Shown one piece after another: positions 3,794 through 23,690 of a DNA stretch of 39,744 nt (position 1 is its first letter; each line of letters opens with the position of its first letter). The stretch is from Acidobacteriota bacterium. GTDB taxonomy: Bacteria > Acidobacteriota > UBA6911 > JACQSX01. A program made the position numbers and the translations under genes. The stretch covers positions 1 to 39,744 of the forward strand of contig DASXQR010000107.1 in NCBI GenBank assembly GCA_036507075.1, read 5' to 3'. The notes beneath the pieces were generated by a model. That model had not been told where the DNA came from. It ran no database searches and saw only the letters and a program-made list of their open reading frames with translations.

Positions 3794-3851
3794 TTGATGG
3801 TGAGAGGCACTCAGTCTTCCTCCTTTGATGGTGAGAGGCACTCAGTCTTCC
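3794..3851. repeat. Tandem duplication, 27-bp identical unit at 31-bp period
   Basis: TTGATGGTGAGAGGCACTCAGTCTTCC at 3794-3820 and 3825-3851. Confidence 0.9.
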
Positions 3852-5036: not shown

Positions 5037-6974
5037 CTATTCTCGGAGCAAAGCACTTTCAAGTATTTTCTCGTAGAGGTCCATAATTCGCCGTGCCTGA
5101 ACTCTGGCACTTAATTCAGATTCGATGTAGTGCCGAGCCGCCCGCGTTACCTGTCGGGTAAGATTCGAATTGCTGAGCACTTGCACGATACGTTTAGCAA
5201 GTGCATTTGCATCTCCAGCTGGGACGACGTAGCCCGTCCTGCCGTCCTGGACGATTTCCTGTGTCCCGCCAGAGTCGCTAATAATGACCGGAACCTCCAT
5301 CGCCATTGCCTCCATCACGGAAGTGGCTAGAGGTTCGCGATGTGAACACGAAACAAGAGCATCGGCCGTGGCTTCGATTTTCCGTATGTCTGGCTGGAAC
5401 TCGAGGAATCTAACAGTGTCATTCAGCTCCTTTGATTCCACCAGTGCTTTAATTGACTCGTAGTAATCTGGCGCTTCAAGGACCTCTCCGACTAGTACGA
5501 TCTTCAAAGATGGGATGTGTGCTCTCACAATCTCGGCAGCTTCGAGCAACAACTCCTGGCGCTTATTCGGTGCAAAACGGGCAATCATTAAGACAACCTT
5601 GGCGTCCTCAGAAATCCCAAATTCTCTTCGGAGGAGCGCCCTTTCAAATAACTCTCGCCTAAAAATGACCGCATCAATTCCATTCCAAATTACATGAACT
5701 TTATCGCTTCGCACATTAAATTTTATAACTTCGCCTTTGACGAATTTCGACACAGTAATGATTCCATCTGCGTTTCGCAATACTTCACCGTAAGCTCGGA
5801 GATTTGCGACATGAACATGTTGCACGACAGGAATCCCCAAGAGCGCTCCCACAAACAAGAGAGGGGCCCCGACAAGCCCGTTAAAATGCATAATCGCAGG
5901 CTGAATACTTTTAACAACTCTCAGGAGAAACAGAAAACTTTGGACGCTAAGATTCCCGAAGTCGTCTTCTGGACACAACACTTCGGCTCCAGCTTGCTTT
6001 AGCCCCTCAGAAAATCTTCCTTGCATTGCCACCAACGCGTAGGGCTTAAATCTTGCCGAATCAAGGTTAGCAATGACCCGACAGAGAACTTCTTCTGCCC
6101 CTGAAAAAACTGATGCAGTCGACACGTATAATACCCGTCGCGGTACCGTCGTGTGGACCGCCAAGCGATAGACTGACGTTTCCCTAATAAGCTTCTCTCG
6201 AACTTCGTCCCTGATCTGTATCGCTGTCTCCTTCCAGAGCCGCAGAGACAACACATCACCACTGCCCCCAAAGGCAAAGTGTGGTGAAGCAGAAATGACA
6301 CGTCTGACAATCTCAACATCAGACGGGAAGAACACACGCACATTCTCCGGTAAGTGCTCGGATTCGATCTTGTACGTGGTAGCCGCATCGAAAGCTTTGC
6401 CGCGTATCTCGGAGCCAGAAGCGCTCAAAAGTCTTTTGATGCCAATTTTAGGGTCATTCAATGACAGGAACGGCAGATTCAACCTCAGCAAGTAGAATAA
6501 AAGCTCAGAACTGTAGATTTCAGCCACAGCGCCATCGCTTAAACCAACAACCTCGGTATAGTCATTGTCCATCACAACGTGGTGAGAGTAGACTTTTGCC
6601 AACAAATCATTTGGAGCAAACGCAAATCCTAAACCGAAGATGGCGACGTCAGCTTGACCACACTTTTCTGCCACTTCTGCAAGTGCCGGCAACTTTGTTT
6701 TGTGTTTAGTTCTGTGGAGGGTCACCCGCCTACATGCCGATATACTCCGGAAAGTAACTTCGTCCGTTTCGTTATCGAACAGGATAAAGAGTCTAGCTGT
6801 AGGATAAGCTTCAGCAAAGTTCTGGATAAACCATTCCAAGAGTGAAACCGAGCCTATATGGTCAAGATAAGAGCGATACGTCAGTGAGGCTGGAATTGGT
6901 GGCAGGTATAGAACTGAGGCCAGACTAGGCAGAAGTTGTTTATTCGGGTCAAGCTGTGAGGGCGTTTCGCACAT
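5037..6974 (-). CDS. GT4 glycosyltransferase fused to an N-terminal degenerate SpsF/cytidylyltransferase-like domain
   Basis: C-terminal half has SGAEE, HVH, IWNGID, ARFAPNKRQ and the EX7E motif EPLATSVMEAMA. N-terminal ...HHVVMDNDYT...DGAVAEIYS resembles SpsF. Confidence 0.8.
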   Translation of the reverse strand: MCETPSQLDPNKQLLPSLASVLYLPPIPASLTYRSYLDHIGSVSLLEWFIQNFAEAYPTARLFILFDNETDEVTFRSISACRRVTLHRTKHKTKLPALAEVAEKCGQADVAIFGLGFAFAPNDLLAKVYSHHVVMDNDYTEVVGLSDGAVAEIYSSELLFYLLRLNLPFLSLNDPKIGIKRLLSASGSEIRGKAFDAATTYKIESEHLPENVRVFFPSDVEIVRRVISASPHFAFGGSGDVLSLRLWKETAIQIRDEVREKLIRETSVYRLAVHTTVPRRVLYVSTASVFSGAEEVLCRVIANLDSARFKPYALVAMQGRFSEGLKQAGAEVLCPEDDFGNLSVQSFLFLLRVVKSIQPAIMHFNGLVGAPLLFVGALLGIPVVQHVHVANLRAYGEVLRNADGIITVSKFVKGEVIKFNVRSDKVHVIWNGIDAVIFRRELFERALLRREFGISEDAKVVLMIARFAPNKRQELLLEAAEIVRAHIPSLKIVLVGEVLEAPDYYESIKALVESKELNDTVRFLEFQPDIRKIEATADALVSCSHREPLATSVMEAMAMEVPVIISDSGGTQEIVQDGRTGYVVPAGDANALAKRIVQVLSNSNLTRQVTRAARHYIESELSARVQARRIMDLYEKILESALLRE

Positions 6975-7314: not shown

Positions 7315-7870
7315 TGAATTGGCTTTTCGGGTAAGCTATCGAGAGAAATGGCTTGCCCCAGCAAAGGAGCCAATGAGCCATGGGAAAAACCCGTCGAAAG
7401 TTCTCACTGGAGTTCAAGCAACAAATTCTGGCGGAAATCGCAAGCGGACAAAAAAGTCTCGGCCAGGCGGCGCGCGAGTATCAGGTGTCGGCAAGCGTGA
7501 TCAATCGCTGGCGCGCGCACGCCGATCAAAATCAGCTGAGCGCCACACCGTCGGCGCGCGAACGAGCGCTGGAAGCAGAAAACGAGCGCTTGAAGGCAAA
7601 GATCGGCGACTTGGTGATGCAGAACGACTTTTTAAAAAAGTTCCAAAGCTTCGTACAACGGCAGAAAAGCGTCGATTCGTCTGTGATCAGTGGGAAGAAT
7701 TGGGATCAATTACGAAAGCGTGCGAAGTGACCGGGATCCGACCGAGCACGTATTATTACCGGCCGAAGCTGGACCCGCAGGTGCGCGAAAAACAGGACGC
7801 GGACTTGAAGGAGAAGATCGAAGCAATTCAGGTTGAAAATCCCGGCTATGGATACCGGCGCGTTCAAACT
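7315..7870 (+). mobile_element. Truncated IS3-family insertion sequence (left end, orfA, start of orfB)
   Basis: Candidate IRL starts TG at 7315; HTH orfA; A-AAA-AAG slippery site at 7634-7640; orfB ACEVTGIRPSTYYY...GYGYRRV breaks off before any DDE domain. Confidence 0.85.
7380..7730 (+). CDS. IS3-family transposase OrfA (HTH)
   Basis: RRKFSLEFK...AREYQVSASVINRW...LEAENERLK...NDFLKK, with an AGGAG RBS. Confidence 0.9.
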   Translation: MGKTRRKFSLEFKQQILAEIASGQKSLGQAAREYQVSASVINRWRAHADQNQLSATPSARERALEAENERLKAKIGDLVMQNDFLKKFQSFVQRQKSVDSSVISGKNWDQLRKRAK

Positions 7871-7872
7871 CC

Positions 7873-7908
7873 GAGGGACAGTCCCCATTCAGATGGGGAC
7901 TGCCCCCT
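7873..7908. repeat. GGGACAGTCCCC-type palindrome; right copy of the island-bounding repeat, overlapping the cyclase stop
   Basis: GGGACAGTCCCCAT-TCAG-ATGGGGACTGCCCC hairpin. Confidence 0.65.
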
Positions 7909-9769
7909 TTTGCCTTTTGCTTGCTTTCTCCAGGCCGGCAACGGCGAAGATCAGAGGATAGAGTCGTTCGAAGTACCAAAGTTTGGCGAAATAGAGGCCG
8001 ATCGGCGACGGAGGCAGCCGCTTTCCGCCTTCAGTATGCTTGATCAACCAGTCGACGGCCGCCGAGACAGCCGACTTGATCCGATCTGACGACAGGGCTG
8101 CCGGTGCACGACCCGAAACATCTTCGGCCGGAAAACCAAAGTCCGTTTCGGCTGCCAGCGCTTCAAGCGCAACGGCGGTCTCTTCGATGGATGATAAAAT
8201 CGAAGGCGCGCCTCCCCATCCTCCATCGGCGTTCTGGGCTGACAGCAGCCAGTGCGACCCACGGGTCGTCATCCGGTAAAGTCCCCGAAAACGTCGACTC
8301 TCCAGGTGGCGCAAGGCTCTCAGTACTCGAGCTGTTCCATAGGTTGCATTCTCATCGTTTTCTGCGAACTGGTTTCCAAACCACAGGGGAATCCAGCTTC
8401 CGTCGTGCCGCTGAACTTTTGCCAGATATTCGATGCCTCGCTCAATGGACCTTTTCGTCTTGACTTGCAGATCCGTCGGAAGGTCATTCAACCACTCCGA
8501 CCAAGCCATTAACGCGTGAGCTGTGATATCCGGGCTGCTTCGATCAAACGGGAGCGTTCCCCATCCTCTGCAAAAAGTGGGGACGCCGCCATCCCGGTTC
8601 TGCAAGTCGATGAGCCATCGAACACCGCTGGTTGCCGCCGTTACGACCCGTTGATCATCGGAGCTCAGATTTCGGAGGGCGAGCAGCACACTCGACGTGT
8701 CGTCCGCGTCGGGAACACCCCCAGTCAAATCCGTCCATGCCCAGCCTCCAGGTTCGGCAAGCGTATAGAGATGTTCTTGCCGGTTCTGTTGGCCGAGCAA
8801 CCAATCCAGGATTCGGTTGCGATCCGAAGTCGGCAGCAATTCAGAGAAGTCGGAATTTTCGGCCAGAGCATTCACCGATAATGTAGTTACCCACGTGCTG
8901 AGGTTCGTGTCGATCGGCCAACTGCCATCTTCGCGTAACGAAGTTTTCAGGAATTGGATCCCCTGGCCAACCACGGAATGGTCTCGAAGCCCGCTTGCCG
9001 CCAGGCTCATGACAACAAAGCTGGTAAGTGGTACCGCTTCCAGAAAACCTCCGCCGGGCGGCTGGATCCTGACAAGGACGTTTAACGTTCTCTGCCGGGC
9101 GAGGTCTCGGAGCAACCGCCGGAATGGGTTTCGCGTGGGTCGGTGCCGGTGCTGTACCACACCAATGGCGATCAAGGCGGGCAGCGCATAGCTGACCACT
9201 GGCAGCCTCAGCCATTTGTAGAATCGCTGCGGCAGCGCCGCCATCTCAAACGGCAGGGGCTCTACCCATCTCCAGGCCTCTCTTCCCTCTCCCAATCGTC
9301 CGGCCAGGGCACAGTTCGTGAGGATGGGGACAGAGAAGGTGTGGTCCGTTCCATACCGATCGGCGATCGCGCTCGCGAGTCGCTCTGGTTCCAAGCTACC
9401 GACGTACTGCTGAATCCAGGCGCGCGCGCGGAGTTCCATCTGCGACCAAGAGGTCGCCAGTTCGCGCGCGAGGCTAAAGGCGGCCCAGCACAAAGCCGTG
9501 GTGCTGATATTACTGACGCTGCGAACAGTGTCTCCCCAGCCGCCGTCCTGATTGCAATTTTGAGCGAGCCACTCCAGCCCCCGGTGGATATAAGAATGGT
9601 AGGTCTGCCGGTCGACAAGACTGAGAGCGGAAATGGCCGTTGCTGTGGAAAGCGCGCTGCTTGACAACTCCCCGACCCAATGGCCCTCCGGTACACGCGC
9701 CGCCAGCAACTCAGCTCTCAATGTCGAAAGGGTTGCATCGGCTGCGGCTTCATCGAGTGAGGTTCGCAT
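7889..9769 (-). CDS. Squalene-hopene-cyclase-like class II terpene cyclase (prenyltransferase/squalene oxidase repeat protein)
   Basis: GHWVGELSSS N-terminus, QW repeats (NQDGGWG, QNRDGGVPTF, QRHDGSW, QNADGGWG), DxDD motif PDADDT, PIGLYFAKLWYFERLYP C-terminus. Start 9769 or 9826. Confidence 0.85.
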   Translation of the reverse strand: MRTSLDEAAADATLSTLRAELLAARVPEGHWVGELSSSALSTATAISALSLVDRQTYHSYIHRGLEWLAQNCNQDGGWGDTVRSVSNISTTALCWAAFSLARELATSWSQMELRARAWIQQYVGSLEPERLASAIADRYGTDHTFSVPILTNCALAGRLGEGREAWRWVEPLPFEMAALPQRFYKWLRLPVVSYALPALIAIGVVQHRHRPTRNPFRRLLRDLARQRTLNVLVRIQPPGGGFLEAVPLTSFVVMSLAASGLRDHSVVGQGIQFLKTSLREDGSWPIDTNLSTWVTTLSVNALAENSDFSELLPTSDRNRILDWLLGQQNRQEHLYTLAEPGGWAWTDLTGGVPDADDTSSVLLALRNLSSDDQRVVTAATSGVRWLIDLQNRDGGVPTFCRGWGTLPFDRSSPDITAHALMAWSEWLNDLPTDLQVKTKRSIERGIEYLAKVQRHDGSWIPLWFGNQFAENDENATYGTARVLRALRHLESRRFRGLYRMTTRGSHWLLSAQNADGGWGGAPSILSSIEETAVALEALAAETDFGFPAEDVSGRAPAALSSDRIKSAVSAAVDWLIKHTEGGKRLPPSPIGLYFAKLWYFERLYPLIFAVAGLEKASKRQKGAVPI

Positions 9770-9825
9770 CGTAGTATCATCCGGGTGTTGCTCAATCAAA
9801 GCCAGCCGAAGATCGACGCATCGCA

Positions 9826-9868
9826 TTCACCGCAGAGCCGCAAAGCACGCCGAGTTTCCGCAGAGCTT
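9826..9868. repeat. CACCGCAGAG-family interspersed repeat (single arm)
   Basis: TTCACCGCAGAGCCGCAAAGCACGCCGAG...CGCAGAG, related to the copies at about 16510 and 18676. Confidence 0.65.
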
Positions 9869-9870
9869 CC

Positions 9871-10755
9871 CTACCACAAACTCAAATGTCCCAACGCAAG
9901 GAGCCCATAGTAGGTGTATTCGCAATCCAGAGCATCGTCAGCCCAATTGCCATAGAAAGCTCCTTTGCTGCTCCATAAACTGTCGACAAAGTTGAGGCAC
10001 GCTTCCGTCAGTCCCTCCAGCGGGACTTGCATTCCCGCCAAGGCGTGAAGAGCGGTCGCAGTTGAAAGAAGATCCGGCATCGGGGCGCCGGGAACGGCGA
10101 AAAAGCCTCCTTCGCGATAGCAGCGGTCAAGCAGCCAGGTCCCTACCGACGGCTCAACGGGCTTCCCGAGAGTCCTGAGCAGAGTTACCGCCGCGGCGGT
10201 CGCGGGTGTCGTTCCGATTGAGGCACGTGGTTGATTTGAAAAAGCGCCATCGGCGGTCTTCGATGACTCCAGGCAATGGAGCACACCGCCCTCATTGGGC
10301 AACTCAGAGCCTAGATCCTGATACGCGCCCTTGGCGAGGAAGCACCCGTAGACGGTGCCGTGCTGAGAACCGGATACCTCGTGATATCCCCCATCGAGCG
10401 ATCGGCGTCCTTCAACCCTGTTGAGAATCGCCTGTCGTATCCATGGTTCCGGAGACGTTCCAGGGAGGCAGGCATAACAGCGCGCCAGACAGGTCAGATG
10501 AACGAAGTCGAGGGAATCACCCGAGCCAAAGGAGCAAACGTAATTCTGGACCGGCACTGGAAGATCCGCCTGCAAAGCGATAAGAGCTTCCAGGCCGAAT
10601 ACCGTGTAATAAAGATCGCTCTTGCCAGAGCGATCCTTGAAGCCGCCGTCGTCGTTTAACTGTCCTCGAATAAAATCAACAACCAAGTCGCGGGAGTCAG
10701 ACAGCAGTTGCGGCGCCAGACGCGCGACCTGCAGCATTTCTAGCCTCAAACTCAC
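9871..10755 (-). CDS. Single (alpha/alpha)6-barrel prenyltransferase-beta-like protein
   Basis: PFTB/QW-like repeats QLNDDGGF, DGGY, DGAF, EGGF; DLYYT, PDLLST and DCEYTYYGL motifs; no DxDD. Confidence 0.8.
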   Translation of the reverse strand: MSLRLEMLQVARLAPQLLSDSRDLVVDFIRGQLNDDGGFKDRSGKSDLYYTVFGLEALIALQADLPVPVQNYVCSFGSGDSLDFVHLTCLARCYACLPGTSPEPWIRQAILNRVEGRRSLDGGYHEVSGSQHGTVYGCFLAKGAYQDLGSELPNEGGVLHCLESSKTADGAFSNQPRASIGTTPATAAAVTLLRTLGKPVEPSVGTWLLDRCYREGGFFAVPGAPMPDLLSTATALHALAGMQVPLEGLTEACLNFVDSLWSSKGAFYGNWADDALDCEYTYYGLLALGHLSLW

Positions 10756-12418
10756 TGCACCAGCCCTTAATCTCGACGTTGAAGATCTTACCGATTACCC
10801 GACGCAGCAGTCCTTTGATATTGGCGTTGTCGAGTGCGCGCAGGGAGCGGACGGCCTCTTCCTTGTAGGACTCCAGAAGCTGCTCAGCCCGCTCTCTGAC
10901 TTTCAGGTCCGTAAGGATTCGCTGAAATTCCTCAGGGTTTAGATCAAGGTCCGGATCGCGCCGCCACACCAACTCGAGCGTATTTTTTACTTCATGGGCG
11001 GCCCGCTCGTAAGCGATCGCAAGCAATAGCGACGGGCGCAGGGCAAAGACTTTTTTATTTCCCGCATCGGCTTGGGAATCTTCCAAATCGTCGCGGATCT
11101 GATACGCAATTCCAAGGGCCTCACTGTACTCGCCGAGCACCTTGCAAACGCTTTCGTCGGCCCCTGCACAAATGGCTCCCAGGCGCAGCGCTACTTCAAA
11201 AGCCGGAGCGGTCTTCCGCCGGAAGATGTCCAGAACTTCAACCGACCTCAAAGGCGCGGGATTGCGCATCCAGCAAAGCTCCGCCCCCTGTCCAAGACAT
11301 AACTGACGATGACCTTCGGCCGCAACGCGCAGCATTTCCAACTTGCGTTCCGGCGGTGCCGGGCTGGACGCGATCATCCGATAACCCTCGCCAATCAAAA
11401 GGTCCCCCACATTCAGGGCGACTGGAACTCCATGTTCTTCATGCAGTGTCTTCTCTCCGTAGCGCAGCGAATCCTGGTCTTCGATATCATCGTGAACCAG
11501 CGAGGCCTTATGGAAGCATTCGACGGCCACCGCGATTTTGCGGAACTCATCTTCAATCCTGGCTTCCGGATCGTCCTGGAAGGCTTGAAACACGCACGTC
11601 GTGAGGAAAGGCCGCCAGCGTTTTCCTGACTTTGCCAGCCAATCAAGCGAAATTGTCTCGGTGGCGCTGCCGGAAGGCTCAAGTATGGACGACAAAACTT
11701 CCCGGGAGAACCAGGAATCCACTTCACGCCGCAGAGCGTCCAGATCCATCCTTCGCGTCTTGTCGGCGCTGGTCAGGTGGATTACATCCCAGACCCAATC
11801 GATATCGACTGTTGTATCCTTGCAGTCGTCCTGAAGCAGCGGAATGGCGATGCCCGGAACAGCCGCCGCTTCCATGTACGGGAAAGCACGCTCCAGCACC
11901 GACAGGCAGCTTACGCCGACAATCGCATCTATTTTCCCGGTCTGGATCAGGGACATCACGATGGGCGAACCCTCCGCAACCAGCACCGCGTATCCCAGCC
12001 GCTCGGCTTCCACTTGCAAATCCTGAATGGAACAAAGACCGCACTGCTTGCAGAGCAGACCGAATTCGTCGAACGGCGCGGGGCATTGATCTTCCACCCG
12101 CAGGCACTTGGGGAGTAGCAGCAGCCGGCGCTGGTAGGGAATTGCCGCCAGAGTTTCCCGCCAGGCTTCATTGTTGACCAAAACCGCAATGTAGTCCTTG
12201 TAAGTTTCATCCAGGCGCGCGCCTTCGACAATAACGTCCGTATGCGAACGCAATTCGTCAAGTGACAGTGGGGTCACAAGGTTGTGCGTCCTGACAAAAT
12301 CGCGAACGACACGCAAGATTTGGTCGCGCTCCCGTTTAGTGTCCGGAATGCCGGGGTGCGGAGGTCGGCTTTTCAGGATCGGCACAGGCTTGGGAAGACT
12401 AAGTACCGGCAACTGCAT
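10697..12418 (-). CDS. DUF116 domain-polyprenyl diphosphate synthase fusion
   Basis: DUF116-like LLLPKCLR..C..CKQCGLC..GVSC..DCKDT, then GKRWRP, FARM HDDIED, GQ, RKT and SARM RDDLED. AAGGGGG RBS before ATG 12418. Confidence 0.88.
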   Translation of the reverse strand: MQLPVLSLPKPVPILKSRPPHPGIPDTKRERDQILRVVRDFVRTHNLVTPLSLDELRSHTDVIVEGARLDETYKDYIAVLVNNEAWRETLAAIPYQRRLLLLPKCLRVEDQCPAPFDEFGLLCKQCGLCSIQDLQVEAERLGYAVLVAEGSPIVMSLIQTGKIDAIVGVSCLSVLERAFPYMEAAAVPGIAIPLLQDDCKDTTVDIDWVWDVIHLTSADKTRRMDLDALRREVDSWFSREVLSSILEPSGSATETISLDWLAKSGKRWRPFLTTCVFQAFQDDPEARIEDEFRKIAVAVECFHKASLVHDDIEDQDSLRYGEKTLHEEHGVPVALNVGDLLIGEGYRMIASSPAPPERKLEMLRVAAEGHRQLCLGQGAELCWMRNPAPLRSVEVLDIFRRKTAPAFEVALRLGAICAGADESVCKVLGEYSEALGIAYQIRDDLEDSQADAGNKKVFALRPSLLLAIAYERAAHEVKNTLELVWRRDPDLDLNPEEFQRILTDLKVRERAEQLLESYKEEAVRSLRALDNANIKGLLRRVIGKIFNVEIKGWCSEFEARNAAGRASGAATAV

Positions 12419-12428
12419 GAATACCCCC

Positions 12429-14027
12429 TTAGGGATGGTAGACAATGGTGTTTGTCTGACCGGGTACGGCATCTCTGGCGACACCGGCTGCGCGCGCTGC
12501 AATCTGCTTTCGGGCTGAGGAGAAGTGCTTACGCCAGGACACGATCTCCGATTTCCCGAGCATTTGAATGGCCATGCGTTTCATCCAGGAGACGCCTCCG
12601 GCGCGCTGATTGTCCCAGTAAAGCTTCGGCACCCAGCGGAAATTGATCTCATAACAGGTCGTGTAAAGCTCGAGATGGTCCGCTCTCATTTCCCGAACAG
12701 TGAAGCGCTCGCCGCGCATCGGGTGCGAGACCAGGACCGGTTCGTGAAAAATTGGAAAGACAACGGCTCGCTGTCTGGCAAGATATCGCACCAACTTAAG
12801 CGTACGGGCAACATCGTCTGGTGTTTCACCCGGCAGCCCCAGGATCACGCTGAAAACGGAGAAGAAGCCGGTCCTTGTCATCAGATCGGCTGCCTGGCGA
12901 ACCATCTCTTCCCAGTCCTCCGGGCGGAAGGGGGCCATCTTTCCCGGTCCGTTGGCGTACACAAGATGACCGTTGGCGCTCTCCACACCCATATTCACCC
13001 AGAGGTAATCGGTCGGTTTCTGCCATGTCAGCAGCCGTCTGACCTCTCTTAGCTGCTCGGCGTTGAGCTGAAGGACAGAGGAGATGTTGGCATGGTCGAT
13101 CTGCATGAAAGAGAGACCGCGTACCTTTCGCATCTCTGACAGAAGCGAGTGCAGGCGGTTGTATCGAACCTTGGGGCCGTATCCGCCATAGCGGAAAAAA
13201 TCCTCGCTGCCGCTGACCACTGCCGGCACGCCGGCGCGGACGTTGGTCTCGAGATCGGAAACGATGGTATCCGGAGGAACGTGGCTCATCTTCTTGAAGG
13301 CCAAAGTGCAAAACTGGCAGGCCTTGCCACAGCCCCGCGAAATCTCCACCACGCCCAGCATCGAAGCGGCACGCAGGGCGCGGATTTGCTCGCAGGCAGT
13401 GCCTCGCTCACAGACATGGGATGGTGCCGGGCAGCCTTCGATGAGATCCATGAAAAGCCTGGGACCAATCGCCTCAAAGTAGCCTTCGAAAACAGTATCA
13501 ATCCCCTGCATGCCGGCTTCTTCGGGGTTCTGGATCCACTGCCAGCTTCCGGCGCCGCCGCCTACTACCTTGAACCCGTATTTTTTCTTGGCGGCTTTGA
13601 CAGCCGCCATCATCCGGTTCATCCAGGTACGTGTGTAGAGTTCACCGCGCCAAAAATTGGTCGTAGTGGTGTTGGTCATTCCTCGACCCAGTGGATCGCT
13701 CGAACTTACGCCCACGACCTTGACCCAGGGCCCCAGCAGTTTCGGCAGAGCCTCCGGCGTAGTGCAGACCACGTCGCTTTGAGTAAGGGGAGTATCAGAC
13801 AGGAGGGCCGATTCCATGCGGCGAATTCCCAATGGAGCCGTCTTTGCGCGACCTTGATCGTCCACTGCAATTGGGGGGGACACAAAACGACGCATGGCCC
13901 ACTCGGGAACCTGGGTAGTCTGCATCGTGGCAAAGATCCCTTCAAAGAGGACCTTGTAGTCGGCGCTGAGCGTTCGGTCGGCTACCAGCACGACGGCTGG
14001 CTTTAGTCTTGGTTCACTCACCGGCAT
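12429..14027 (-). CDS. Radical SAM enzyme with B12-binding-like N-terminal domain, Grs/Gms-like
   Basis: CxxxCxxC motif [25 protein letters not shown]; family-like motifs [30 protein letters not shown] and [14 protein letters not shown]. Confidence 0.85.
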
Positions 14028-14907
14028 CGCCCTTGGAGATGCTCGATACAGGGCCCGTAGACTGACGTTGCAACGCCTCTTCGGCGGCCAGTCGAGCTTT
14101 TTCGGCTCTGAACTTTATTTCATCGGGGCTGGGCAGGGACATCAGAACCTCGGGAGGGATGTCGACTTGCGCTTGCAGTTTCTCCAGGCACTTGCGGCGC
14201 TCCTTGAGCGCTCTCTCATCATCTCTCTCCCTGGCAAAGCGGGTCTGCGCTCGCTGGCTCCGTTCCCGCAACAGAGCGTAAATATCTCCGCCAAGAAGCG
14301 CCGAGATATCAATCTTCATCTTCTCTCGCTGAAGATCCGCCTCACTCACGACGTCGCCGTTGATGGGCCCGGCTTTGTACTTGGGGAAGAGGATCGCAAC
14401 TTCCGGACAGACGCGCGAACAGGCAGGGCAATCCGTCTTGCATTTTTGCGGATTCCGGACTTGGATCTTTCCTTCGGCTGAAGCGCTGTAGACATCGAAA
14501 AGGCAGAAGCTTAGACACTGCATGCAGTTCGTGCAGCGGTCGTAATCGATTACCGGGAACCAGGGCTTCCATCCTCCCGGCTTCTTCGCTTCGGATTCGT
14601 CCAAAACGGCATCGACGATTTCAACAACACCGGCAGCGCCGAGACCGTGGATGTCGCGAAAAAAAACAGGAATCTCGCTCTCGACAGCGGCTCCATCCGG
14701 TATTCCCTGCTCGCCAAAATGCCCCAGCACCAGAAGAGGGCGACCATCAGACGAAACGGCTCCATCCCGTGAACCGGTGCATGTAACCGCATGACCGCGC
14801 TCCAGAAGCGCTTTGACGGTCTGAAAGCGCTGGCTATCGGGAAGGGTCTGGCTGCCGGCGCCTTCATACACGACGATGTGCAAAAAAGAGGAAACTCCTG
14901 AACTCAC
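14014..14907 (-). CDS. 2x[4Fe-4S] ferredoxin-domain protein with N- and C-terminal extensions
   Basis: [11 protein letters not shown] and [16 protein letters not shown] 14907 overlaps the upstream TGA (GTGA coupling). Confidence 0.85.
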
Positions 14908-15257
14908 GACTGCTTCTCCTCTGAATCTTCTGAAATGCTCACCAGCAGCGGTTTGACGACATTTTCCGCGGTTTCCACACGCATGTTTAGAACCTCTACG
15001 TCCTCCTGCAGTGGCGCATCGGCCGCGGCGAACAGCCATTTAACGGCGCGAGGATAGCAGGCAGCAATTTTAAGTCCTTTTTCTTCGGCAAATTTCCTCA
15101 TGGCGGGGTCCCGCCGAGCCGACATCTCGCAAAGATCTGCTACGGCATCGAAAGCGATGGCTGAGCCGGACAACCTGCTCAGCACCTCTTCCTTGACCGC
15201 CTCGGGCACGACGCGGGCGTAAGCGCAGTGGCAATAGAGAACGCGACATTCCCGCAA
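14904..15257 (-). CDS. Small Cys protein resembling the heterodisulfide reductase HdrA N-terminal Fe-S domain
   Basis: LYCHC...DLC...IAACYPR...LNMR mirrors the HdrA pattern CHCG...LC...AACSPR...NIRE. GAAGGAG RBS before the TTG start. Confidence 0.7.
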   Translation of the reverse strand: MRECRVLYCHCAYARVVPEAVKEEVLSRLSGSAIAFDAVADLCEMSARRDPAMRKFAEEKGLKIAACYPRAVKWLFAAADAPLQEDVEVLNMRVETAENVVKPLLVSISEDSEEKQS

Positions 15258-15281
15258 GTTGATATCTCCTTCGAAAACAGG

Positions 15282-16400
15282 CTACACGTCCACGCCAATC
15301 TTCGCAATACGATACGTCGGGACAGGTCTGCCAGGACGGAAGTGCTCCATATGCTCGATCTGGAGGGTCATGTTTCCATCCGAGCAGGCACGCAAAGCAG
15401 AATCGGTGGCTGCATACAGTTGATCGGGAGACGATTCTGCGCGAAGGTTCAAGATAAGCTGACCCGTCTGCAGCGGGTCAAGAAGCGACTGGGAGAGCTC
15501 GGGAATGTAATCGTTTCGAACCAGATTGATAACGGCCAGTTCTCCGCTTTCATCATCGGGAGAAAGGGTCATCTTGAGGTGAGCGATTTCAGCCTCGCCG
15601 GCCTGCATATGCCGCTGGATTGTCTGGGCTATCCTCATAAGCAGAGCGTCACCGTCGAAGGGTTGCACAGCGCGAACTTCCACGGTGCAATTCAGCCATC
15701 CCAGCAAAGACTCTCCTTCCGCGTAAAGGTCATAGTCCAGGTCCATGGCCTCGTCGTTTCCGAGTTCGTGCGCCGTGATGCGGCCAAACCAATCGTCCAA
15801 TCCGGTGCCGTAACGCGCCGAACATACCAGCACCTCGGCGGTTGGAAAACCAGCGGCCAGGGCACTTCGAAGGCGTTCGAGCCTGCCGGCTTCGAGAAGG
15901 TCGCACTTGTTGATGACAATCAGGTCTGCCTCCTCGAGCTGCTTGCGGTAGACATAGGCCACCTTCTCTGAGAACGCGCGTCCCGGCTCCAGTCCCAGGA
16001 TACGGAGCGCGCGCAGAGGGTCTACCAGGACACTGAGAGGCGCAATCGTAAAATCGTGACCATAGATGCGACGCAAAGGATAGCTGACGGAAGCCACCAG
16101 GTCCGTGCAACTTCCGACGGGCTCAGCGATAAACACATCCGGTCGAGAATGTTTCGACAAACTGCTTGCCGCTTCCACCAGCGAGTTGAAGCGACAGCAG
16201 AAGCAGCCGCCTGCGATTTCCTCTACCGGGAAACCATGAGATTGGAGGAATGCCGTATCGACTAATCCTTCCCCCTGGTCGTTGGTAATCAGGCCCACTC
16301 TCAGACCTTGATTCGTGAAATGGCGGGCGAGTCGGGAGACCGAAGTGGATTTTCCGGAACCCAGGAAACCGCCTACCATGATGTATCGCGCCTTTGCCAT
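15282..16400 (-). CDS. CobW/COG0523-family (P47K) metallochaperone GTPase
   Basis: Walker A GGFLGSGKST, ND-x-G, GCFCC metal motif, EPVG Walker B, NKCD. GAGGA RBS before ATG 16400. Confidence 0.9.
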   Translation of the reverse strand: MAKARYIMVGGFLGSGKSTSVSRLARHFTNQGLRVGLITNDQGEGLVDTAFLQSHGFPVEEIAGGCFCCRFNSLVEAASSLSKHSRPDVFIAEPVGSCTDLVASVSYPLRRIYGHDFTIAPLSVLVDPLRALRILGLEPGRAFSEKVAYVYRKQLEEADLIVINKCDLLEAGRLERLRSALAAGFPTAEVLVCSARYGTGLDDWFGRITAHELGNDEAMDLDYDLYAEGESLLGWLNCTVEVRAVQPFDGDALLMRIAQTIQRHMQAGEAEIAHLKMTLSPDDESGELAVINLVRNDYIPELSQSLLDPLQTGQLILNLRAESSPDQLYAATDSALRACSDGNMTLQIEHMEHFRPGRPVPTYRIAKIGVDV

Positions 16401-16455
16401 TGCGGAGGTCCTCAATTCTGGTAATGGGTCAGTTTCGCCTTTCCTGTAATCGGAC

Positions 16456-16550
16456 TTCTCGGCGTAAACTTAGCGTTTTCTGCGGCTCTGCGGTGAAAGG
16501 CGTCGGAATTCACCGCAGAGTCGCAAAGGCCGCTGAGGTTTCGCCGAGAA
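16456..16550. repeat. Inverted pair of CACCGCAGAG-family repeats (long imperfect hairpin)
   Basis: TTCTCGGCG...GCGGCTCTGCGGTGAA / TTCACCGCAGAGTCGC...CGCCGAGAA. Confidence 0.8.
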
Positions 16551-16577
16551 CTTCACAATTCAAACTGACCCATTACC

Positions 16578-17036
16578 TTAATTCTGCTTGCCTTGTATCC
16601 TGTCGATGGTGGAGTCAAGGATATCTACATAGCCGTGCACGCTCACCGAATCAGCATCAGGTGAGCCTCGAACTGCATACAACCAGCCCTTGCCGTAGGG
16701 ATCGCGGTGGAGAAGCTCAATCTTGGTTTGAAGATCGGGGTTTTCCTGCTGGAACTCGCCATTGACAACGCAGTACAAATCGCTGGTAGCCTTGAACCCC
16801 TCGATCCATCCGATGATTTGGCCTGTGCGGACAAGCTCGCCTGCCTGCACCTCAAACCCGCATTCCACTATTTCACCCAACATTCGAATTGCGAACTTGG
16901 TGAATCCGATCCGCCAAATGTCCTGTTCCTGAGGGGCGATCCAGAAGTGCGATCCCGTGTAGAGCCGCTCGGCTGGAAGTCGCGTCGAAAACCGAGATCG
17001 TTTGTAACGGATAGACTCCTCAGGTTTGGAAACCAA
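16578..17036 (-). CDS. Glycine cleavage H-like lipoyl-carrier protein (orphan)
   Basis: YTGSHFW, RIGFTKFA..LGEI, Lys motif IEGFKATSDL, N..L..DPYGKGWLY; also has an N-terminal YKRSRFSTRLP extension. Confidence 0.85.
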   Translation of the reverse strand: MVSKPEESIRYKRSRFSTRLPAERLYTGSHFWIAPQEQDIWRIGFTKFAIRMLGEIVECGFEVQAGELVRTGQIIGWIEGFKATSDLYCVVNGEFQQENPDLQTKIELLHRDPYGKGWLYAVRGSPDADSVSVHGYVDILDSTIDRIQGKQN

Positions 17037-17207
17037 GCAAAATCACCTTTGGCACGAACGCCTCGTTCAGCGCTTTTTGTCCTGAAGGTCGTGATTCAAA
17101 TTGTTTATGGTCGGCAAAAGAATAGCCCGCGCTCCCGGAAAAGCACAAGAGCTTTGTCCTACTGGGTACCCGAAAATTCCGCATCTTGTGTCCTGTGTGG
17201 CCGTTAT

Positions 17208-17400
17208 CGTGGACCTTGACGTGCACGCGCGCGTGAACGTGGACGGCTTTTTCTTTGGTTGTGGCCTTGCGGCCACTATGTGCCCGTGAACGCAGGACGT
17301 GGAGGTTGTCGTGATCGTGCTCGTAGGCGTTAGACGCGGTCGTTGACGTTTTCGTGAACGGTTTCTTGGTTGCGGCCTGCAGGCTGTGCCTCTGTGGTGA
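17208..17400. repeat. Low-complexity hexamer (GTGNAC-like) and GGTTG(C/T)GGCC repeat mosaic
   Basis: CGTGGACCTTGACGTGCACGCGCGCGTGAACGTGGACGGCTTTTT...GGTTG; a similar module occurs at about 23742-23834. Confidence 0.55.
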
Positions 17401-17453
17401 AGATTTCTTCCCCGGATTTCGATTAAAATGAGATTTCGCACGATTTTAAAGGT

Positions 17454-18650
17454 ATGGGTCCGATCTATCTTGACCACCACGCCACCACGCCTCTGGATAA
17501 ACGTGTCCTGGAAGCGATGGTTCCCTTCTTTATCGAAAAATTTGGCAATGCGGCCAGCCGAACGCATTGGTACGGACGGGAGGCCGAAGCGGCAGTTGAA
17601 TATGCGAGAGCACAACTGGCCGCTCTGATTCATGCGGACGCCAAAGACATAATTTTTACAAGCGGCGCCACCGAGTCTGACAACCTCGCCATCCGAGGGG
17701 TCGCTGAATTCTACCGTGAGAAAGGAAACCATATCATTACCTGTCAGACCGAGCATCGAGCGGTGCTGGATAGTTGTCGCGCCCTGGAAAGGGCCGGGTT
17801 CGAAGTCACTTATTTGCCGGTGGACTCAAACGGCATGGTAGATCCCGACGATGTTCGCAGAACCATCGGCGATAGGACTCTCCTGATTACGATCATGTTT
17901 GCCAATCATGAGATCGGAACTCTCCACGATGTTGCGGCTATTGGCAGAGTCGCCCGGAATCGGGGGATTTTTTTTCACTGCGACGCTACTCAGGGGGTGG
18001 GAAAGGAACCCATCGACGTTAATGCTCTCGGGATTGACTTGCTATCGATGTCTGCCCACAAGATTTACGGACCGAAGGGAATAGGGGCGCTCTATGTGAG
18101 GCGCAGGAACCCTCGGGTGCGCCTCTTGCCGCTTATTTATGGCGGCGGCCACGAGCGAGGGATTCGCTCCGGCACGCTAAACGTCCCGGGAATTGTGGGA
18201 TTTGGAAAAGCTTGTGAGATTGCGTCGGTCGAAATGGATTCCGAACGCGAGCGGCTGGGTAAGTTTCGAAAAATACTGCAACAGAGCATTCAGAGCCGCT
18301 TGGAAGGTGCGCGGGTCAACGGGCATCCTGTGCATCGTCTGGCCGGCAATCTCAACCTCAGCTTTGCAGATATCAACGGATTAAATCTGCTTGCGCGGCT
18401 TGAGAAGTATCTCGCGATCTCTTCGGGATCAGCCTGTACTTCGGCCGTGCCGGAGCCGTCTTATATCCTAAAGGCCATTGGCGTCCCCTTGCCGCTCATG
18501 CTGGCAACAATTCGGATCGGACTGGGACGCTTCAATACGGAGCAAGACGTGAGATCAGCCGGCGATTGGATCGTGGAAGCAGTAGAAATACTGCTGGCGC
18601 AGTCGCGCCAAAAGAGTACGAATCTCAAACAGGCAGGCGACAGCGTTTGA
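17454..18650 (+). CDS. iscS: Cysteine desulfurase (class I, IscS/NifS type)
   Basis: IYLDHHATTP, FTSGATES, PLP Lys SAHKIYGPKG, GGHERGIRSGT, catalytic SSGSACTS. Confidence 0.92.
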   Translation: MGPIYLDHHATTPLDKRVLEAMVPFFIEKFGNAASRTHWYGREAEAAVEYARAQLAALIHADAKDIIFTSGATESDNLAIRGVAEFYREKGNHIITCQTEHRAVLDSCRALERAGFEVTYLPVDSNGMVDPDDVRRTIGDRTLLITIMFANHEIGTLHDVAAIGRVARNRGIFFHCDATQGVGKEPIDVNALGIDLLSMSAHKIYGPKGIGALYVRRRNPRVRLLPLIYGGGHERGIRSGTLNVPGIVGFGKACEIASVEMDSERERLGKFRKILQQSIQSRLEGARVNGHPVHRLAGNLNLSFADINGLNLLARLEKYLAISSGSACTSAVPEPSYILKAIGVPLPLMLATIRIGLGRFNTEQDVRSAGDWIVEAVEILLAQSRQKSTNLKQAGDSV

Positions 18651-19457: not shown

Positions 19458-20642
19458 CTATCCCACTTTGACCACCATCAGCGTCAAATCGTCGCTCAGA
19501 GGGGACTCTCGGCGGTGAGCGGTAACGTTTTCCAGAAGCCGAGAGCATAATTCCTGAGCGGAGGCCCGGCGGTTCGCCTGCACCGTCAGGATCACGCGTT
19601 CTGCGCCGTACTCCTCATCTGAGGAATTGTGCGCTTCGATCAGACCGTCGGTATAAAGTAGAAGAACATCGCCCGGCTTCAGATTGCGGCGTGACTCCTT
19701 GTATTCCGCTCCGAAAAAGGCGCCTACAACGGTACCGCCGCGGGTCAATTGCACCACGTTGCCGTCGCCGGTGAAAAGAAGCGGAGGATTGTGCCCTGCA
19801 TTGCAGTAAGTAAGAACCCTGTTGCGCGAATCCAGCACACCGTAGACGGCCGTCACAAAGCGGTTGTCATCCAGACCTTCTTTCAACAGGTTGTTGACTT
19901 TTCGGAAGATAGTGGCGATCGCGTAGTCATTGCGGATCTGCGCGCGCAGAAAAGCTCGGAAGCTTGCCATGATAAGGGCCGCAGACATTCCCTTTCCAAC
20001 CACGTCTGCGATCACCAGCCCCACGTTATCCTCCGGGAATCCGACAAAATCGTAGTAATCACCCCCTACTCCCGCGGCCGGAATGCTCAGTGCAGCCATG
20101 TCATATCCGGGCAAGACTGGAACTTGGGCCGGAAGCAGGCTGAGTTGTACCTGGCGTGCCACTTCCAGCTCGCTCTCCAATCTCTTCTTTGCCAGCAGGT
20201 CTTCGTGCAGCAGCGCCTTCTCGATTGTGTAGGCCACTTCCCTGGCGAAAAAGTCCAAGATCTCCCGATCGGCCTCCGCATAGCTTCCCTGCGACCGAAG
20301 CCCTATCAGGATCGAGCCGATGGCACGGCCGTCGAATAGGATGGGAGCCTCCAGCCTGGCAGCGAGGCTGTCAATGCCGATCGAGCCCAAATCGGCCGGA
20401 GAATACGCCGGCCCGCTGTCCGGAGAGCTCGAGTCGAGCCGGCGCACCAGCGAGCGGTGAAGGTTTTGTGGTCCGTCCGAGAGGCGAATCGCCGCCACGT
20501 CGTGCGGAATCAATTGCGCCAGCGTTTTGAGAACCAGATCAAGAGTGGCGTCCAGATTGAGAGACGTTTCTACCTGAGATCGGATTTTGCTCGAGATCTC
20601 AAGCAGAAGGCGTAGTTTGGTATCGTCGGTTAGAAGGGTCAT
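19458..20642 (-). CDS. GAF + PP2C/SpoIIE (RsbU-like) serine phosphatase
   Basis: ELEVARQVQ, VGGDYYD, ADVVGKG, NAGHNPP, YTDGL, DDLT. Confidence 0.92.
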   Translation of the reverse strand: MTLLTDDTKLRLLLEISSKIRSQVETSLNLDATLDLVLKTLAQLIPHDVAAIRLSDGPQNLHRSLVRRLDSSSPDSGPAYSPADLGSIGIDSLAARLEAPILFDGRAIGSILIGLRSQGSYAEADREILDFFAREVAYTIEKALLHEDLLAKKRLESELEVARQVQLSLLPAQVPVLPGYDMAALSIPAAGVGGDYYDFVGFPEDNVGLVIADVVGKGMSAALIMASFRAFLRAQIRNDYAIATIFRKVNNLLKEGLDDNRFVTAVYGVLDSRNRVLTYCNAGHNPPLLFTGDGNVVQLTRGGTVVGAFFGAEYKESRRNLKPGDVLLLYTDGLIEAHNSSDEEYGAERVILTVQANRRASAQELCSRLLENVTAHRRESPLSDDLTLMVVKVG

Positions 20643-20826
20643 CGGTCAGTGGTTGTGGGTCATTGGTCATTGGTCATTGGTCATTGGTCATTGGTCATTC
20701 GTCATTCGTCTTGGAGTCTTGGTGGTGCAATTTCTTTTACCACCAAGGCACCAAGCTTCCGAACCTTCATGATGCAAAAATGACCAATCACCGATGACCA
20801 ATGACGAATGACCAATGACCATCATT
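20641..20826. repeat. Heptamer (TTGGTCA)n tandem array and inverted array enclosing a CACCAAGG hairpin
   Basis: GGTCATT repeated about 6 times near 20658-20710; TGACCAA-type units at 20781-20822; TTGGTGGT...ACCACCAA in between. Confidence 0.85.
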
Positions 20827-20830
20827 CACT

Positions 20831-22120
20831 TTATGCCTCTGCCCTGCTGCCTTTCCGCTCCGGCCGGATCAGTAGAAAAACCAGTGCCGTTGCCAGCAGC
20901 GGAATCAGGCTGGCGACAATCAGGATGGGTTCAAACGAATAATGATCCGAAACGTAACCCACAAGAAAGGTGGACAGAATTGTGCCGATTCCCGCTCCGG
21001 TTCCACTCATTCCGCTCACCGTGGCAACCGAGCGGCTGGGATATAAATCCGAGGGAAGCACCAGGACCATGGTCGAAAAAGCGGCGTAGGCAAATGTGGA
21101 GATTCCGAAAAAGAACGCGATTGTATATAAGCTCGAGGTGAATATCGTTGGAATCAAAAGCGTCATGCCGAAGCCGCAAAAAAGGATCACTCTCTTCCGG
21201 GCGCGCACGACCGGCATGCCTCGGCGGATCAGCCAACTGGAGACTCCTCCGCCGAAAAAATTGCCCAAATCGGCCGCAATAAATGGAACCCAAAATGCGA
21301 GCAGTCCCTGCTCCGGCCTGATTCCCTTGGAAACCAGGTAGATGCCAAACCAATCAGTGATAAAAAACCATATCGGGTCGGTCAGTGATCGCCCGAAGAT
21401 GATCCCCCATGTCTGAGGCAGGCGTATCAGTTGTTTCCACCCTCCGCCCGCCCCTCCCTCATCTGCAGCTTCAACTTCCCGGCGGTCGCGCAGAATCATT
21501 TCCCTTTCTTCGGCGCTGATTCGCGGGTGACTCTCAGGTGTGTAATAGGTCAAACGCCAGACGATCAGCCAGAAAAACCCCAGCGTGCCTGTAATAAGGA
21601 ATGCCGGTCGCCACGTGCCGAAATATTTGTAGAGGGAAATCACCAGCCAGGGCGCAATTGCTCCACCGATCGAGGAACCGCTGTCGAAGAGCGCTACAGC
21701 CCATCCCCGTTCCTTCTTGGGGAACCATTCCGCCACCGCTTTCGTTGCCGCGGGCCAATTGGCCGACTCTCCGGCGCCCAGGAGAAAACGAAATGCGAAG
21801 AAACTCTTCAGCCCTGTAGCCATGGAGGTGGCCATGGCCACCGCCGAGTACCCCAACACTGTAATAGTGAGACCGCGCCGCGTGCCGATTCGGTCGATTA
21901 ATCTGCCCGCGACCGTCTGCCCCACCGCATACGCGATCCGAAAACCGTTTACGATGATGCCGTAGTTCTGGTTTGTCCAGCCGTAATCCGTCTTTAGATA
22001 AGGGGCCAGAACCGAAAGCGTCTGCCGATCGATGTAATTAATGACGGTGGACGCAAACAACAGTCCGCCAATCCACCATCGCAGATTCGGGATGGTCTTT
22101 GTTTGGGCGGGTTCACTCAT
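20831..22120 (-). CDS. MFS transporter, ACS family (ExuT-like hexuronate/sugar-acid transporter)
   Basis: [51 protein letters not shown]. Confidence 0.9.
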
Positions 22121-22203
22121 GCGGTTCTTGCGATGTCCAATTCAAATTAAAAAACTTGAGGACCTGTGAAAAGATTAACCACAAGTTCGCATTCTTCCAA
22201 TTT

Positions 22204-23682: not shown

Positions 23683-23690
23683 GGGATCTC

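Follow-up and report, generated by a model that had tools for sequence, protein, structure and literature searches.

A conserved gene cluster in an acidobacterial genome that may direct the squalene-independent synthesis of a cyclic polyprenoid lipid

The subject of this study is a gene cluster in contig DASXQR010000107.1 of an Acidobacteriota bacterium (GCA_036507075.1; source genome 95.7% complete), positions 1-39,744 of which, being the whole stretch of DNA that was analysed, are referred to below as the window. Eight minus-strand genes lie in a single orientation within 7889-17036, and in order of transcription these encode a GcvH-like protein, a CobW-type GTPase, a small cysteine-containing protein (the small Cys protein), a ferredoxin-type protein, a radical SAM protein, a fusion of a DUF116 domain to a polyprenyl diphosphate synthase, a protein with a single alpha/alpha-toroid domain, and a class II terpenoid cyclase resembling squalene-hopene cyclase (SHC); a divergent iscS gene adjoins them (Table 1). 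The principal finding is that these genes form a conserved, real and uncharacterised unit, of which the window is one more member. On balance the sequences incline us to think that this conserved operon, of which the window holds a full copy, makes a cyclic polyprenoid lipid by a route that would be independent of squalene.

Not all of the genes belong to the unit to the same degree. Its core consists of the cyclase and the DUF116::synthase fusion, usually joined by the toroid protein, a ferredoxin-type protein and one radical SAM protein; gcvH, cobW and iscS are branch-specific parts, all three of which the window carries. A preliminary description of the window had listed eight co-oriented genes with overlapping or short junctions and a divergent iscS, all of which are present according to a list of open reading frames (ORFs) and family scans, and had inferred from the set one self-contained pathway. 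That the genes form a conserved unit is borne out by synteny that recurs in distant genomes; near-universal within it is only a core of five to six genes, gcvH, cobW and iscS being restricted to some branches.

Conservation of the gene set across genomes

The comparison was built on 80 loci, retrieved from one-genome-per-species contigs by alignment of homologues of the window's radical SAM protein (called type A below), against which the proteins of the window were then run by tblastn. The labels of these loci cover Planctomycetota (Phycisphaerae, Sedimentisphaerales, Brocadiia and Uabimicrobium), Omnitrophota, Acidobacteriota, Sumerlaeota, Verrucomicrobia and others. The type-A protein itself was matched in all 80. 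Loci with a match numbered 76 for the synthase fusion, 72 for the small Cys protein, 67 for the toroid protein and 59 for the cyclase, strand and gene order agreeing in every match; for the ferredoxin there were 12 such loci, for cobW and gcvH 7 each, and for iscS 2. The misses include short loci that are ended by contig edges (e.g. L005, L058 and L070), while the cyclase is truly absent locally from L002, L003, L009, L062 and L071. The low count for the ferredoxin is put down to sequence divergence. Clustering of ORFs revealed one of 240-440 aa directly upstream of the radical SAM gene in most loci, and the three of these that were tested each comprise a small-Cys-like N-terminal domain followed by Fer4, which suggests that in most lineages a single protein, with fused forms of 250-320 aa, stands for both the small Cys protein and the ferredoxin. 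Recurrence of the gene set in such distant genomes places the arrangement far beyond chance, and the idea that two unrelated modules merely happen to be adjacent was rejected on this synteny.

When 251 genomes were sampled from the phylum to which genome G303 belongs, 10 proved to carry a second clade of the radical SAM protein, at 36-41% identity, and 8 to carry orthologues. In four of its five loci the gene order is ferredoxin-radical SAM-cyclase-synthase-toroid (the fifth locus being ended by a contig edge), and the occurrence of the same genes in a different order favours a functional link over inherited adjacency. The cyclase is present in 65 of these 251 genomes, and 17 of the 18 radical SAM-bearing genomes among them carry it.

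Sixteen further loci, centred on the cyclase, were taken from Planctomycetota genomes without the type-A protein. In these the synthase fusion was found 14 times, the toroid protein 10, gcvH 10, cobW 8, the small Cys protein 6 and iscS 4. Five of them (L105 and L113-L116) have the order gcvH-cobW-small Cys-ferredoxin-X-synthase-toroid-cyclase, i.e. the full set of the window at 41-60% identity, where slot X is occupied by an unrelated SPASM/twitch-type radical SAM protein of about 396 aa (type B), whose nearest models are NirJ, AhbC, PqqE and BlsE. These five loci show two unrelated radical SAM scaffolds filling one operon slot. Type B was found in 8 of the 16 cyclase-centred loci, but neither in the 80 type-A loci nor in the window. 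Outside the five loci its position varies: in L118 it is flanked by the ferredoxin gene and by a GNAT gene that lies upstream of the cyclase, in L120 by the ferredoxin and cyclase genes, and in L111 it stands upstream of the cyclase in divergent orientation. The flanking genes recur in L106, iscS included, with no type-B match. Counting both sets of loci, iscS flanks the cluster in L077, L105, L106, L114 and L115 (at one end of it in L105, L114 and L115), and L107, L108 and L112 keep gcvH-ferredoxin-cyclase with no radical SAM gene nearby, the synthase fusion being kept in L107 and L108 and not found in L112. The window itself is of a mixed kind, in which the gcvH-cobW-iscS add-on is combined with a type-A radical SAM protein.

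Two smaller observations belong here. In Candidatus Uabimicrobium amorphum (G301; locus L095) a cyclase homologue lies at C1:5642397-5644211, with roughly 440 kb between it and the other cluster genes, and one TAG and one TAA are reported inside this match. Of 301 genomes from the phylum of the window, 8 have distant paralogues of the radical SAM protein (26-31% identity); at the three loci checked these paralogues have no cluster partner, and so they give no functional hint.

The cyclase, the synthase fusion and the toroid protein

The cyclase scores far below the cut-offs of the established SHC models (112.1 against 431.1 bits for TIGR01507, and 130.8 against 322.7 for TIGR01787). When it is aligned by phmmer with the SHC of Alicyclobacillus (1gsz), its PDADDT pairs with PDVDDT and its DITAH with DVTAH, and among 56 relatives D373, D375 and D376 are kept in every case and H437 in all but one. 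Since both the DxDD motif and the histidine are kept, the protein is likely, as far as these residues can indicate, to be an active class II cyclase of the alkene-protonating kind. It is the sole gene of its family in the window's genome.

Some homologues are publicly annotated as 'squalene--hopene cyclase', and it might be supposed from this, as well as from the DxDD motif and the presence of both SHC Pfam domains, that the cyclase is simply an ordinary SHC of the hopanoid pathway with unrelated neighbours. We find this hardly credible: apart from the low score against TIGR01507, the genome contains no match to PF00494 (the SQS_PSY family of Sqs, HpnC, HpnD and CrtB) and no HpnH (the best genome-wide match to TIGR03470 reaches 54.3 bits against a cut-off of 225.05, and lies outside the cluster), while the neighbours are conserved with the cyclase across phyla and gene orders. 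The lack of hpnCDE and squalene synthase, remarked on in the preliminary description, thus holds for the genome at large and not for the window alone, and the view taken there that the cyclase is no ordinary squalene-using SHC is strengthened by its coupling to a prenyl synthase of its own. Hopanoid biosynthesis (HpnCDE or Sqs, SHC and HpnH) does resemble the present cluster in bringing together a DxDD beta-gamma cyclase, a radical SAM protein and genes for an isoprenoid precursor; it differs in that here there is no gene of the squalene synthase family, the cyclase is below cut-off, the radical SAM protein is unmatched to the Hpn models, and the cluster has its own prenyl synthase.

What the cyclase does fit, to judge from its sequence and surroundings, is the published description of an 'SHC-like' clade: divergent proteins in which the catalytic residues are kept and which have a polyprenyl synthase as neighbour. 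Santana-Molina et al. (2020; PMC7306690) reported SHC-like proteins from Planctomycetes, Verrucomicrobia and some Bacteroidetes, with the catalytic residues kept and a polyprenyl synthase usually nearby, and suggested a non-squalene precursor for them; a 2025 preprint (bioRxiv 10.1101/2024.10.28.620730; PMC12414744) names Gemmata obscuriglobus as the holder of an SHC-like gene, describes the function of these proteins as undemonstrated even in tractable organisms, and points out that to know what they act on would place constraints on the evolution of epoxide and alkene cyclisation. The likeness to the present cyclases extends to divergence from SHC, retention of catalytic residues, adjacency of a polyprenyl synthase, the suspicion that the precursor is not squalene, and occurrence in Planctomycetota, Verrucomicrobiota and Acidobacteriota. 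The portions of those publications drawn on here mention only the polyprenyl synthase as a neighbour, whereas the genes considered here add to it the DUF116 fusion, the toroid protein, the small-Cys ferredoxin, two alternative radical SAM proteins, and the GcvH-like, CobW and IscS proteins. In a literature search that excluded subscription journals and bioRxiv supplements, no paper was found that assigns a product or makes mention of any of the partners (radical SAM, ferredoxin, toroid, GcvH, CobW and IscS proteins), nor was any functional paper on the bacterial SHC-like clade found from 2023 onwards. The core of cyclase plus synthase has already been flagged in print as an open problem; to call the system undescribed, as had been done at the outset, was an overstatement, given that the cyclase clade and its polyprenyl synthase neighbour had been published (PMC7306690; bioRxiv 10.1101/2024.10.28.620730) and that the fusion had been noted in 2015 (PMC5898192).

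The second component of the core, the synthase fusion, has both aspartate-rich motifs and the GKRxR site of trans-prenyl diphosphate synthases (PF00348). Across 26 fusion sequences the first aspartate-rich motif (FARM; HDDIED, H310-DDIED-315) and residues K267 and R268 of the GKRxR site are invariant, as are D445 and D448 of the second (SARM; DDxxD), whereas D444 of that motif is retained by at least 90% of the sequences. The closest relatives in the PDB are the archaeal geranylgeranyl diphosphate (GGPP) synthases 1wy0 (E 1.2e-28) and 5jfq, both of which have tyrosine at the fifth residue before the FARM, where the fusions have an invariant alanine (A306). Archaeal GGPP synthases, whose product is C20, characteristically carry a bulky aromatic side chain five residues ahead of the first aspartate-rich motif, and mutagenesis of these enzymes has shown that the chain elongates past C20 when the aromatic residue is lost. 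The alanine, taken together with this mutagenesis, forms the sole basis for expecting the product of the synthase to be longer than C20, as by its sequence it probably is. Separate synthases of the farnesyl diphosphate (FPP) type and of the octaprenyl type are encoded outside the cluster, so that with these housekeeping enzymes accounted for the fusion appears as a third, dedicated synthase of the genome.

The DUF116 part of the fusion has seven cysteines, which are invariant across the same 26 sequences, and it is predicted to be an iron-sulfur (Fe-S) domain. The fusion family is very large: among 8000 cluster representatives scored, 7757 were matched at E<=1e-30, and all of the 120 representatives listed have both domains. 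Makarova et al. (2015; PMC5898192) described DUF116 (arCOG02078) as Cys-rich with a predicted flavodoxin-like, metal-binding character, predicted for it a general role in electron transfer from its archaeal contexts, and recorded its fusion to a polyprenyl synthetase in Pirellula staleyi (Psta_0175); in what that paper says of the family, neither cyclases nor radical SAM proteins are brought into connection with it.

It could be imagined that squalene or a C30 analogue of it is made here without squalene synthase, FPP chains being coupled reductively by the Fe-S and radical SAM proteins, and is then cyclised in the manner of hopanoids. Consistent with this are the absence of PF00494 from 9 of the 11 cluster-bearing genomes examined, the alkene-protonating motif of SHC type in the cyclase, the strong reductant module within the cluster, and the remark of Santana-Molina et al. 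(PMC7306690) that no known squalene synthase is present in some of the groups that have cyclases, and that there may be new precursor routes. We consider it quite unlikely all the same, in that the genome has a separate FPP synthase, which would make a dedicated one unneeded, that the invariant alanine before the FARM favours products beyond C15-C20, and that the radical SAM protein is exchanged for an unrelated type or missing beside many cyclase-synthase pairs. To our knowledge there is, moreover, no precedent for coupling of two chains by Fe-S and radical SAM proteins in this way.

The toroid protein is predicted with high confidence (predicted local distance difference test score, pLDDT, 97). 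In Foldseek searches the model was matched to the beta subunit of RabGGTase with template-modelling (TM) scores of 0.69-0.73 and root-mean-square deviations of 3.4-3.8, and to the beta-only class II cyclases 8paj and MstE at a TM score of about 0.65. Nine residues (R42, D47, Y49, Y50, R92, D147, D228, D277 and E279) are invariant among 27 sequences. The protein has no DxDD motif, and no Cys/His metal site is conserved in it; the single candidate cysteine for a zinc site (in DCEY) is missing from 4 of 54 sequences. No gene resembling a prenyltransferase alpha subunit was found among the conserved neighbours. In both gene orders the toroid gene comes immediately after that of the synthase, and it does so also where the cyclase lies elsewhere, for which reason we read the protein as a prenyl-binding partner of the synthase.

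A different use for the toroid protein, as transferase or binder, would follow if the product were a meroterpenoid, i.e. if the polyprenyl chain were joined to an aromatic or quinone-type head before being cyclised, as happens with the epoxy-polyprenyl cyclases and MstE. The preprint cited above reports that the sister group of the SHC-like clade consists of cyclases, Lon15 and AtoE for example, which act on polyprenylated or meroterpenoid substrates, and the resemblance of the toroid model to MstE and to prenyltransferase beta subunits would also agree; but no UbiA- or ABBA-type prenyltransferase, no gene for a chorismate-derived head group and no epoxidase was seen among the conserved neighbours in the loci examined, and with no Cys/His metal site conserved in the toroid protein, the cysteine of DCEY included, this explanation appears rather unlikely. 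The epoxy-polyprenyl cyclases themselves (Lon15, AtoE, Bra4 and PlaT2) are comparable to the present enzyme as the reported sister clade and in acting on polyprenyl substrates linked head-to-tail throughout (bioRxiv 10.1101/2024.10.28.620730); in contrast to it they need an epoxide derived from O2, whereas here the DxDD motif and histidine are kept and no epoxidase is conserved nearby.

The radical SAM protein, its partners and the proposed pathway

Relatives of the type-A radical SAM protein are 62-82% identical across phyla. In 20 sequences the CX3CX2C motif (C231, C235 and C238) and C456 are invariant, and C86 is nearly so. The model (pLDDT 81) has a Rossmann-like N-terminal domain, a radical SAM core and a helical C-terminal domain, and Foldseek matched it to MtaB, MgmA, MiaB, RimO, AprD4, TsrM, CysS, OxsB and TokK at TM scores of about 0.44-0.51. 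As regards a possible cobalamin domain, the N-terminal domain is Rossmann-like and TsrM, TokK, OxsB, CysS and MgmA are all matched at 0.45-0.51, but so is the cobalamin-free AprD4, and no B12-binding Pfam family was matched. The nearest relatives by sequence in the PDB are RimO and MiaB, from which type A differs in having no conserved Cys triad in residues 1-220 and no TRAM match, and in reaching only 36.7 of the 251 bits set for TIGR00089. It has no match to the NCBIfam model for HpnH, nor to models for HpnJ, HpnP or HpnR.

The small Cys protein, for which the label 'HdrA-N-like' had earlier been proposed, matches no Pfam family even at E<=1, and no family search supports that label; an Atlas search returned only hypothetical proteins and fusions to ferredoxins. 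The N-terminal part of the ferredoxin-type protein resembles, in an alignment with fused relatives, a copy of the small Cys domain without its cysteines. In the CobW-type GTPase, CxCC is kept in all 16 aligned relatives and GCFCCR in 14 of them, and all NCBIfam matches are below cut-off; as TIGR02475, the model for true CobW, is among these at 47.3 against 332.1 bits, the protein is not the cobalamin CobW. The GcvH-like protein keeps the position of the lipoyl-lysine in 17 of 17 aligned relatives. Its scores are below cut-off (81.6 against 117 bits for NF002270, 71.9 against 115.85 for TIGR00527) and a canonical GcvH (146.7 bits) is encoded on another contig of the genome, from which we take it to be a paralogue and not the glycine-cleavage subunit. 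The IscS of the cluster (517.8 against 548 bits for NF010611) is likewise an extra copy, there being a second one elsewhere in the genome at 49% identity.

The joint presence of IscS, a lipoylatable GcvH paralogue and a radical SAM protein related to RimO and MiaB, which is seen in the window and in L077, L105, L106, L114 and L115, raises the thought of a sulfur-containing isoprenoid, into which the radical SAM protein would insert IscS-derived sulfur much as lipoyl synthase or MiaB do, with the GcvH-like protein as carrier or relay. This we hold to be very unlikely: the N-terminal domain has no conserved three-Cys site for an auxiliary cluster and there is no TRAM domain, gcvH, cobW and iscS are missing from 73, 73 and 78 of the 80 type-A loci respectively, and the presence of IscS and CobW can be explained equally well by the Fe-S and metal maturation that the cluster's four or five Fe-S proteins call for.

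It is only partly borne out that the type-A protein marks anaerobes. In a set of 30 related genomes selected by the authors, all nine that lack a heme-copper oxidase (PF00115) carry type A; the oxidase is nonetheless present in 7 of the 16 type-A genomes, among them that of the window, which has two copies, and in all 14 of the genomes that have type B or no cluster radical SAM gene beside the cyclase.

To return to the synthesis of a cyclic polyprenoid without squalene, the steps may be pictured as follows. The DUF116-fused synthase would likely build a dedicated head-to-tail chain longer than C20, and the SHC-like cyclase would likely protonate this chain or some derivative and cyclise it, starting at the omega end. 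Electrons might pass from the ferredoxin-type protein to the radical SAM protein, to the Fe-S DUF116 domain, or to both, and that the ferredoxin-type gene is kept in L107, L108 and L112, where no radical SAM gene is found, hints that DUF116 is also served. The radical SAM protein would likely carry out an oxygen-independent radical modification; as one type can be swapped for another, it seems that the radical step is wanted without being bound to a particular scaffold. IscS and CobW would likely provide sulfur and metal and so mature the many Fe-S and metal sites of the cluster, and the GcvH-like protein might act as a dithiol redox partner or carrier. The MFS_3, GT4 and beta-propeller accessories of some branches, described in the next section, point to a lipid of the membrane or envelope that may be glycosylated or moved. 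A more specific proposal, which must be regarded as doubtful, is that the DUF116 domain reductively processes the allylic diphosphate in the manner of IspH, so giving a hydrocarbon for the cyclase.

In the sporulenol pathway of Bacillus, which comprises a heptaprenyl diphosphate synthase, YtpB and SqhC, a relative of SHC cyclises a regular head-to-tail chain. The proposed pathway would share with it a class II SHC relative and a non-squalene chain derived from a polyprenyl precursor, but it has no class I enzyme of the YtpB type, its cyclase belongs to another clade, and it has Fe-S and radical SAM partners.

There are several points that weigh against this reading of the cluster. All of its proteins are known here from their genes alone. 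The inferred chain length hangs on one residue and on mutagenesis of the archaeal enzymes, whereas the closest synthases of solved structure make C20 and the best NCBIfam matches, themselves sub-threshold, are to short-chain synthases. Two of the cluster-bearing genomes, G301 and G304, do carry SQS_PSY genes, so that squalene could still be the substrate in some carriers. The cyclase is apart from the other genes in Uabimicrobium, L009, L062 and L071, and cyclase-synthase pairs occur with no radical SAM gene nearby in L107-L110, L112 and L117, so that the radical step may be no more than optional tailoring. The chemistry of type A cannot be assigned from its fold matches, which are weak and mixed, spanning methylthiotransferases, B12 methylases and a dehydratase, and the small Cys domain matches no named family.

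The interest of the window and its relatives is that they turn the gap surrounding the SHC-like proteins into a defined and testable gene set, namely a dedicated synthase fused to a Cys-rich domain, together with a toroid protein, a protein of ferredoxin type and, in one and the same position, either of two unrelated radical SAM proteins. If the product is indeed a cyclised regular polyprenoid, it would represent a new class of bacterial membrane lipid and a candidate source for sedimentary biomarkers of unknown origin, such as the tricyclic terpanes that are ubiquitous in sediments and oils, and the first functions would be obtained for DUF116 and for the unnamed small Cys domain. Regular polycyclic polyprenoids have been proposed as the precursors of these orphan tricyclic terpanes (PMC9247107). 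It is tempting, although a long shot, to suppose that the operon is the source of just such compounds, with a hexaprenyl-or-longer synthase and the SHC-like cyclase yielding tricyclopolyprenol-type lipids without oxygen, as precursors of the orphan tricyclic terpanes (cheilanthanes), and with DUF116, ferredoxin and radical SAM protein performing a new kind of reductive or radical processing of prenyl diphosphates.

Organisation of the locus and accessory genes

Within the minus-strand run the widest gap, of about 162 nt, separates gcvH from cobW, and cobW is followed after 24 nt by the small Cys gene. The small Cys and ferredoxin genes share the letters GTGA, in which the GTG start of the latter runs into the stop of the former, the ferredoxin and radical SAM genes overlap by 14 nt, and the synthase begins with an ATG (at 12421) that lies 7 nt past the radical SAM stop and is preceded by AAGGGGG, the frame being open as far upstream as a TTG at 12502. 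Synthase and toroid genes overlap by 59 nt, and 44 nt separate toroid and cyclase, for which one database version begins 19 codons downstream of the start that gives 645 aa. A scan for promoters and terminators found 3 and 20 sites respectively, which do not exceed the numbers in shuffled sequence (4.3 and 14.0), and so it yields no operon boundaries. A search of sequencing runs matched six DNA runs from soil metagenomes and no RNA run.

Table 1 Coordinates, strand and supporting matches of the genes of the cluster, listed by position in the window.
Gene product	Length (aa)	Position	Strand	Family match or motif
SHC-like class II terpenoid cyclase	645	7889-9826	-	PF13243 E 2.7e-37; PF13249 E 1.1e-13; motif PDADDTS
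Single-domain alpha/alpha-toroid protein	294	9871-10755	-	PF00432 E 7.8e-11
DUF116::trans-prenyl diphosphate synthase	574	10697-12421	-	PF01976 E 2.7e-35; PF00348 E 2.6e-42
Radical SAM protein, type A	532	12429-14027	-	PF04055, 41.8 bits against a cut-off of 29.5
Ferredoxin-type protein, two [4Fe-4S] motifs	297	14014-14907	-	Fer4 matches, residues 160-216 of the long ORF
Small Cys protein, CxC...C...C	117	14904-15257	-	unnamed domain
CobW/COG0523-type GTPase metallochaperone	377	15282-16415	-	PF02492 E 3.2e-25 (89.2 bits); CFCC motif
GcvH-like lipoyl-carrier paralogue	152	16578-17036	-	PF01597 E 1.1e-19, 71 bits
IscS/NifS-type cysteine desulfurase		17454-18650	+	PF00266 E 2e-82

In other genomes a number of further genes accompany the cluster. 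A gene for an MFS_3 transporter lies between synthase and toroid in L048, L049, L054 and L057 (PF05977, E 1.8e-64 in L057), and about 28 of the type-A loci, as well as clade-2 loci, have one or two beta-propeller genes (PQQ_2/BamB-like) on the same strand directly upstream of small Cys-ferredoxin. GT4 genes lie 2-3 kb upstream of the radical SAM gene in four of the five clade-2 loci, and in only 2 of the 80 type-A loci. One clade-2 locus, L097, has in addition a co-oriented run at 672-4579 of genes for NuoE/NuoF-like and NuoG-like Fe-S flavoproteins, at least 3.4 kb upstream of the radical SAM gene, with 23S-IVP-like, GT4, beta-propeller and ferredoxin genes intervening; these Nuo-like genes suggest an NADH-linked supply of electrons.

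In the window the region upstream of the cluster (19458-23697, minus strand) encodes a GAF-SpoIIE phosphatase, an MFS transporter and a GHMP/galactokinase-like kinase, which are not conserved with it. Just downstream of the cyclase an ORF at 7319-8089 (plus strand), the long form of which overlaps the 3' end of the cyclase gene, gives a weak match to IS3-family transposases (NF033516, E 3e-12, 46.5 against 160 bits) and is possibly the remnant of an insertion sequence at the edge of the cluster. A PQQ_2/BamB-like beta-propeller gene is present at the edge of the window (3-1103, plus strand), distant from the cluster, and directly downstream of the cyclase there is a gene (5037-6974, minus strand) for a GT4 glycosyltransferase of 645 aa, which has an N-terminal region of about 290 aa without an assigned family.

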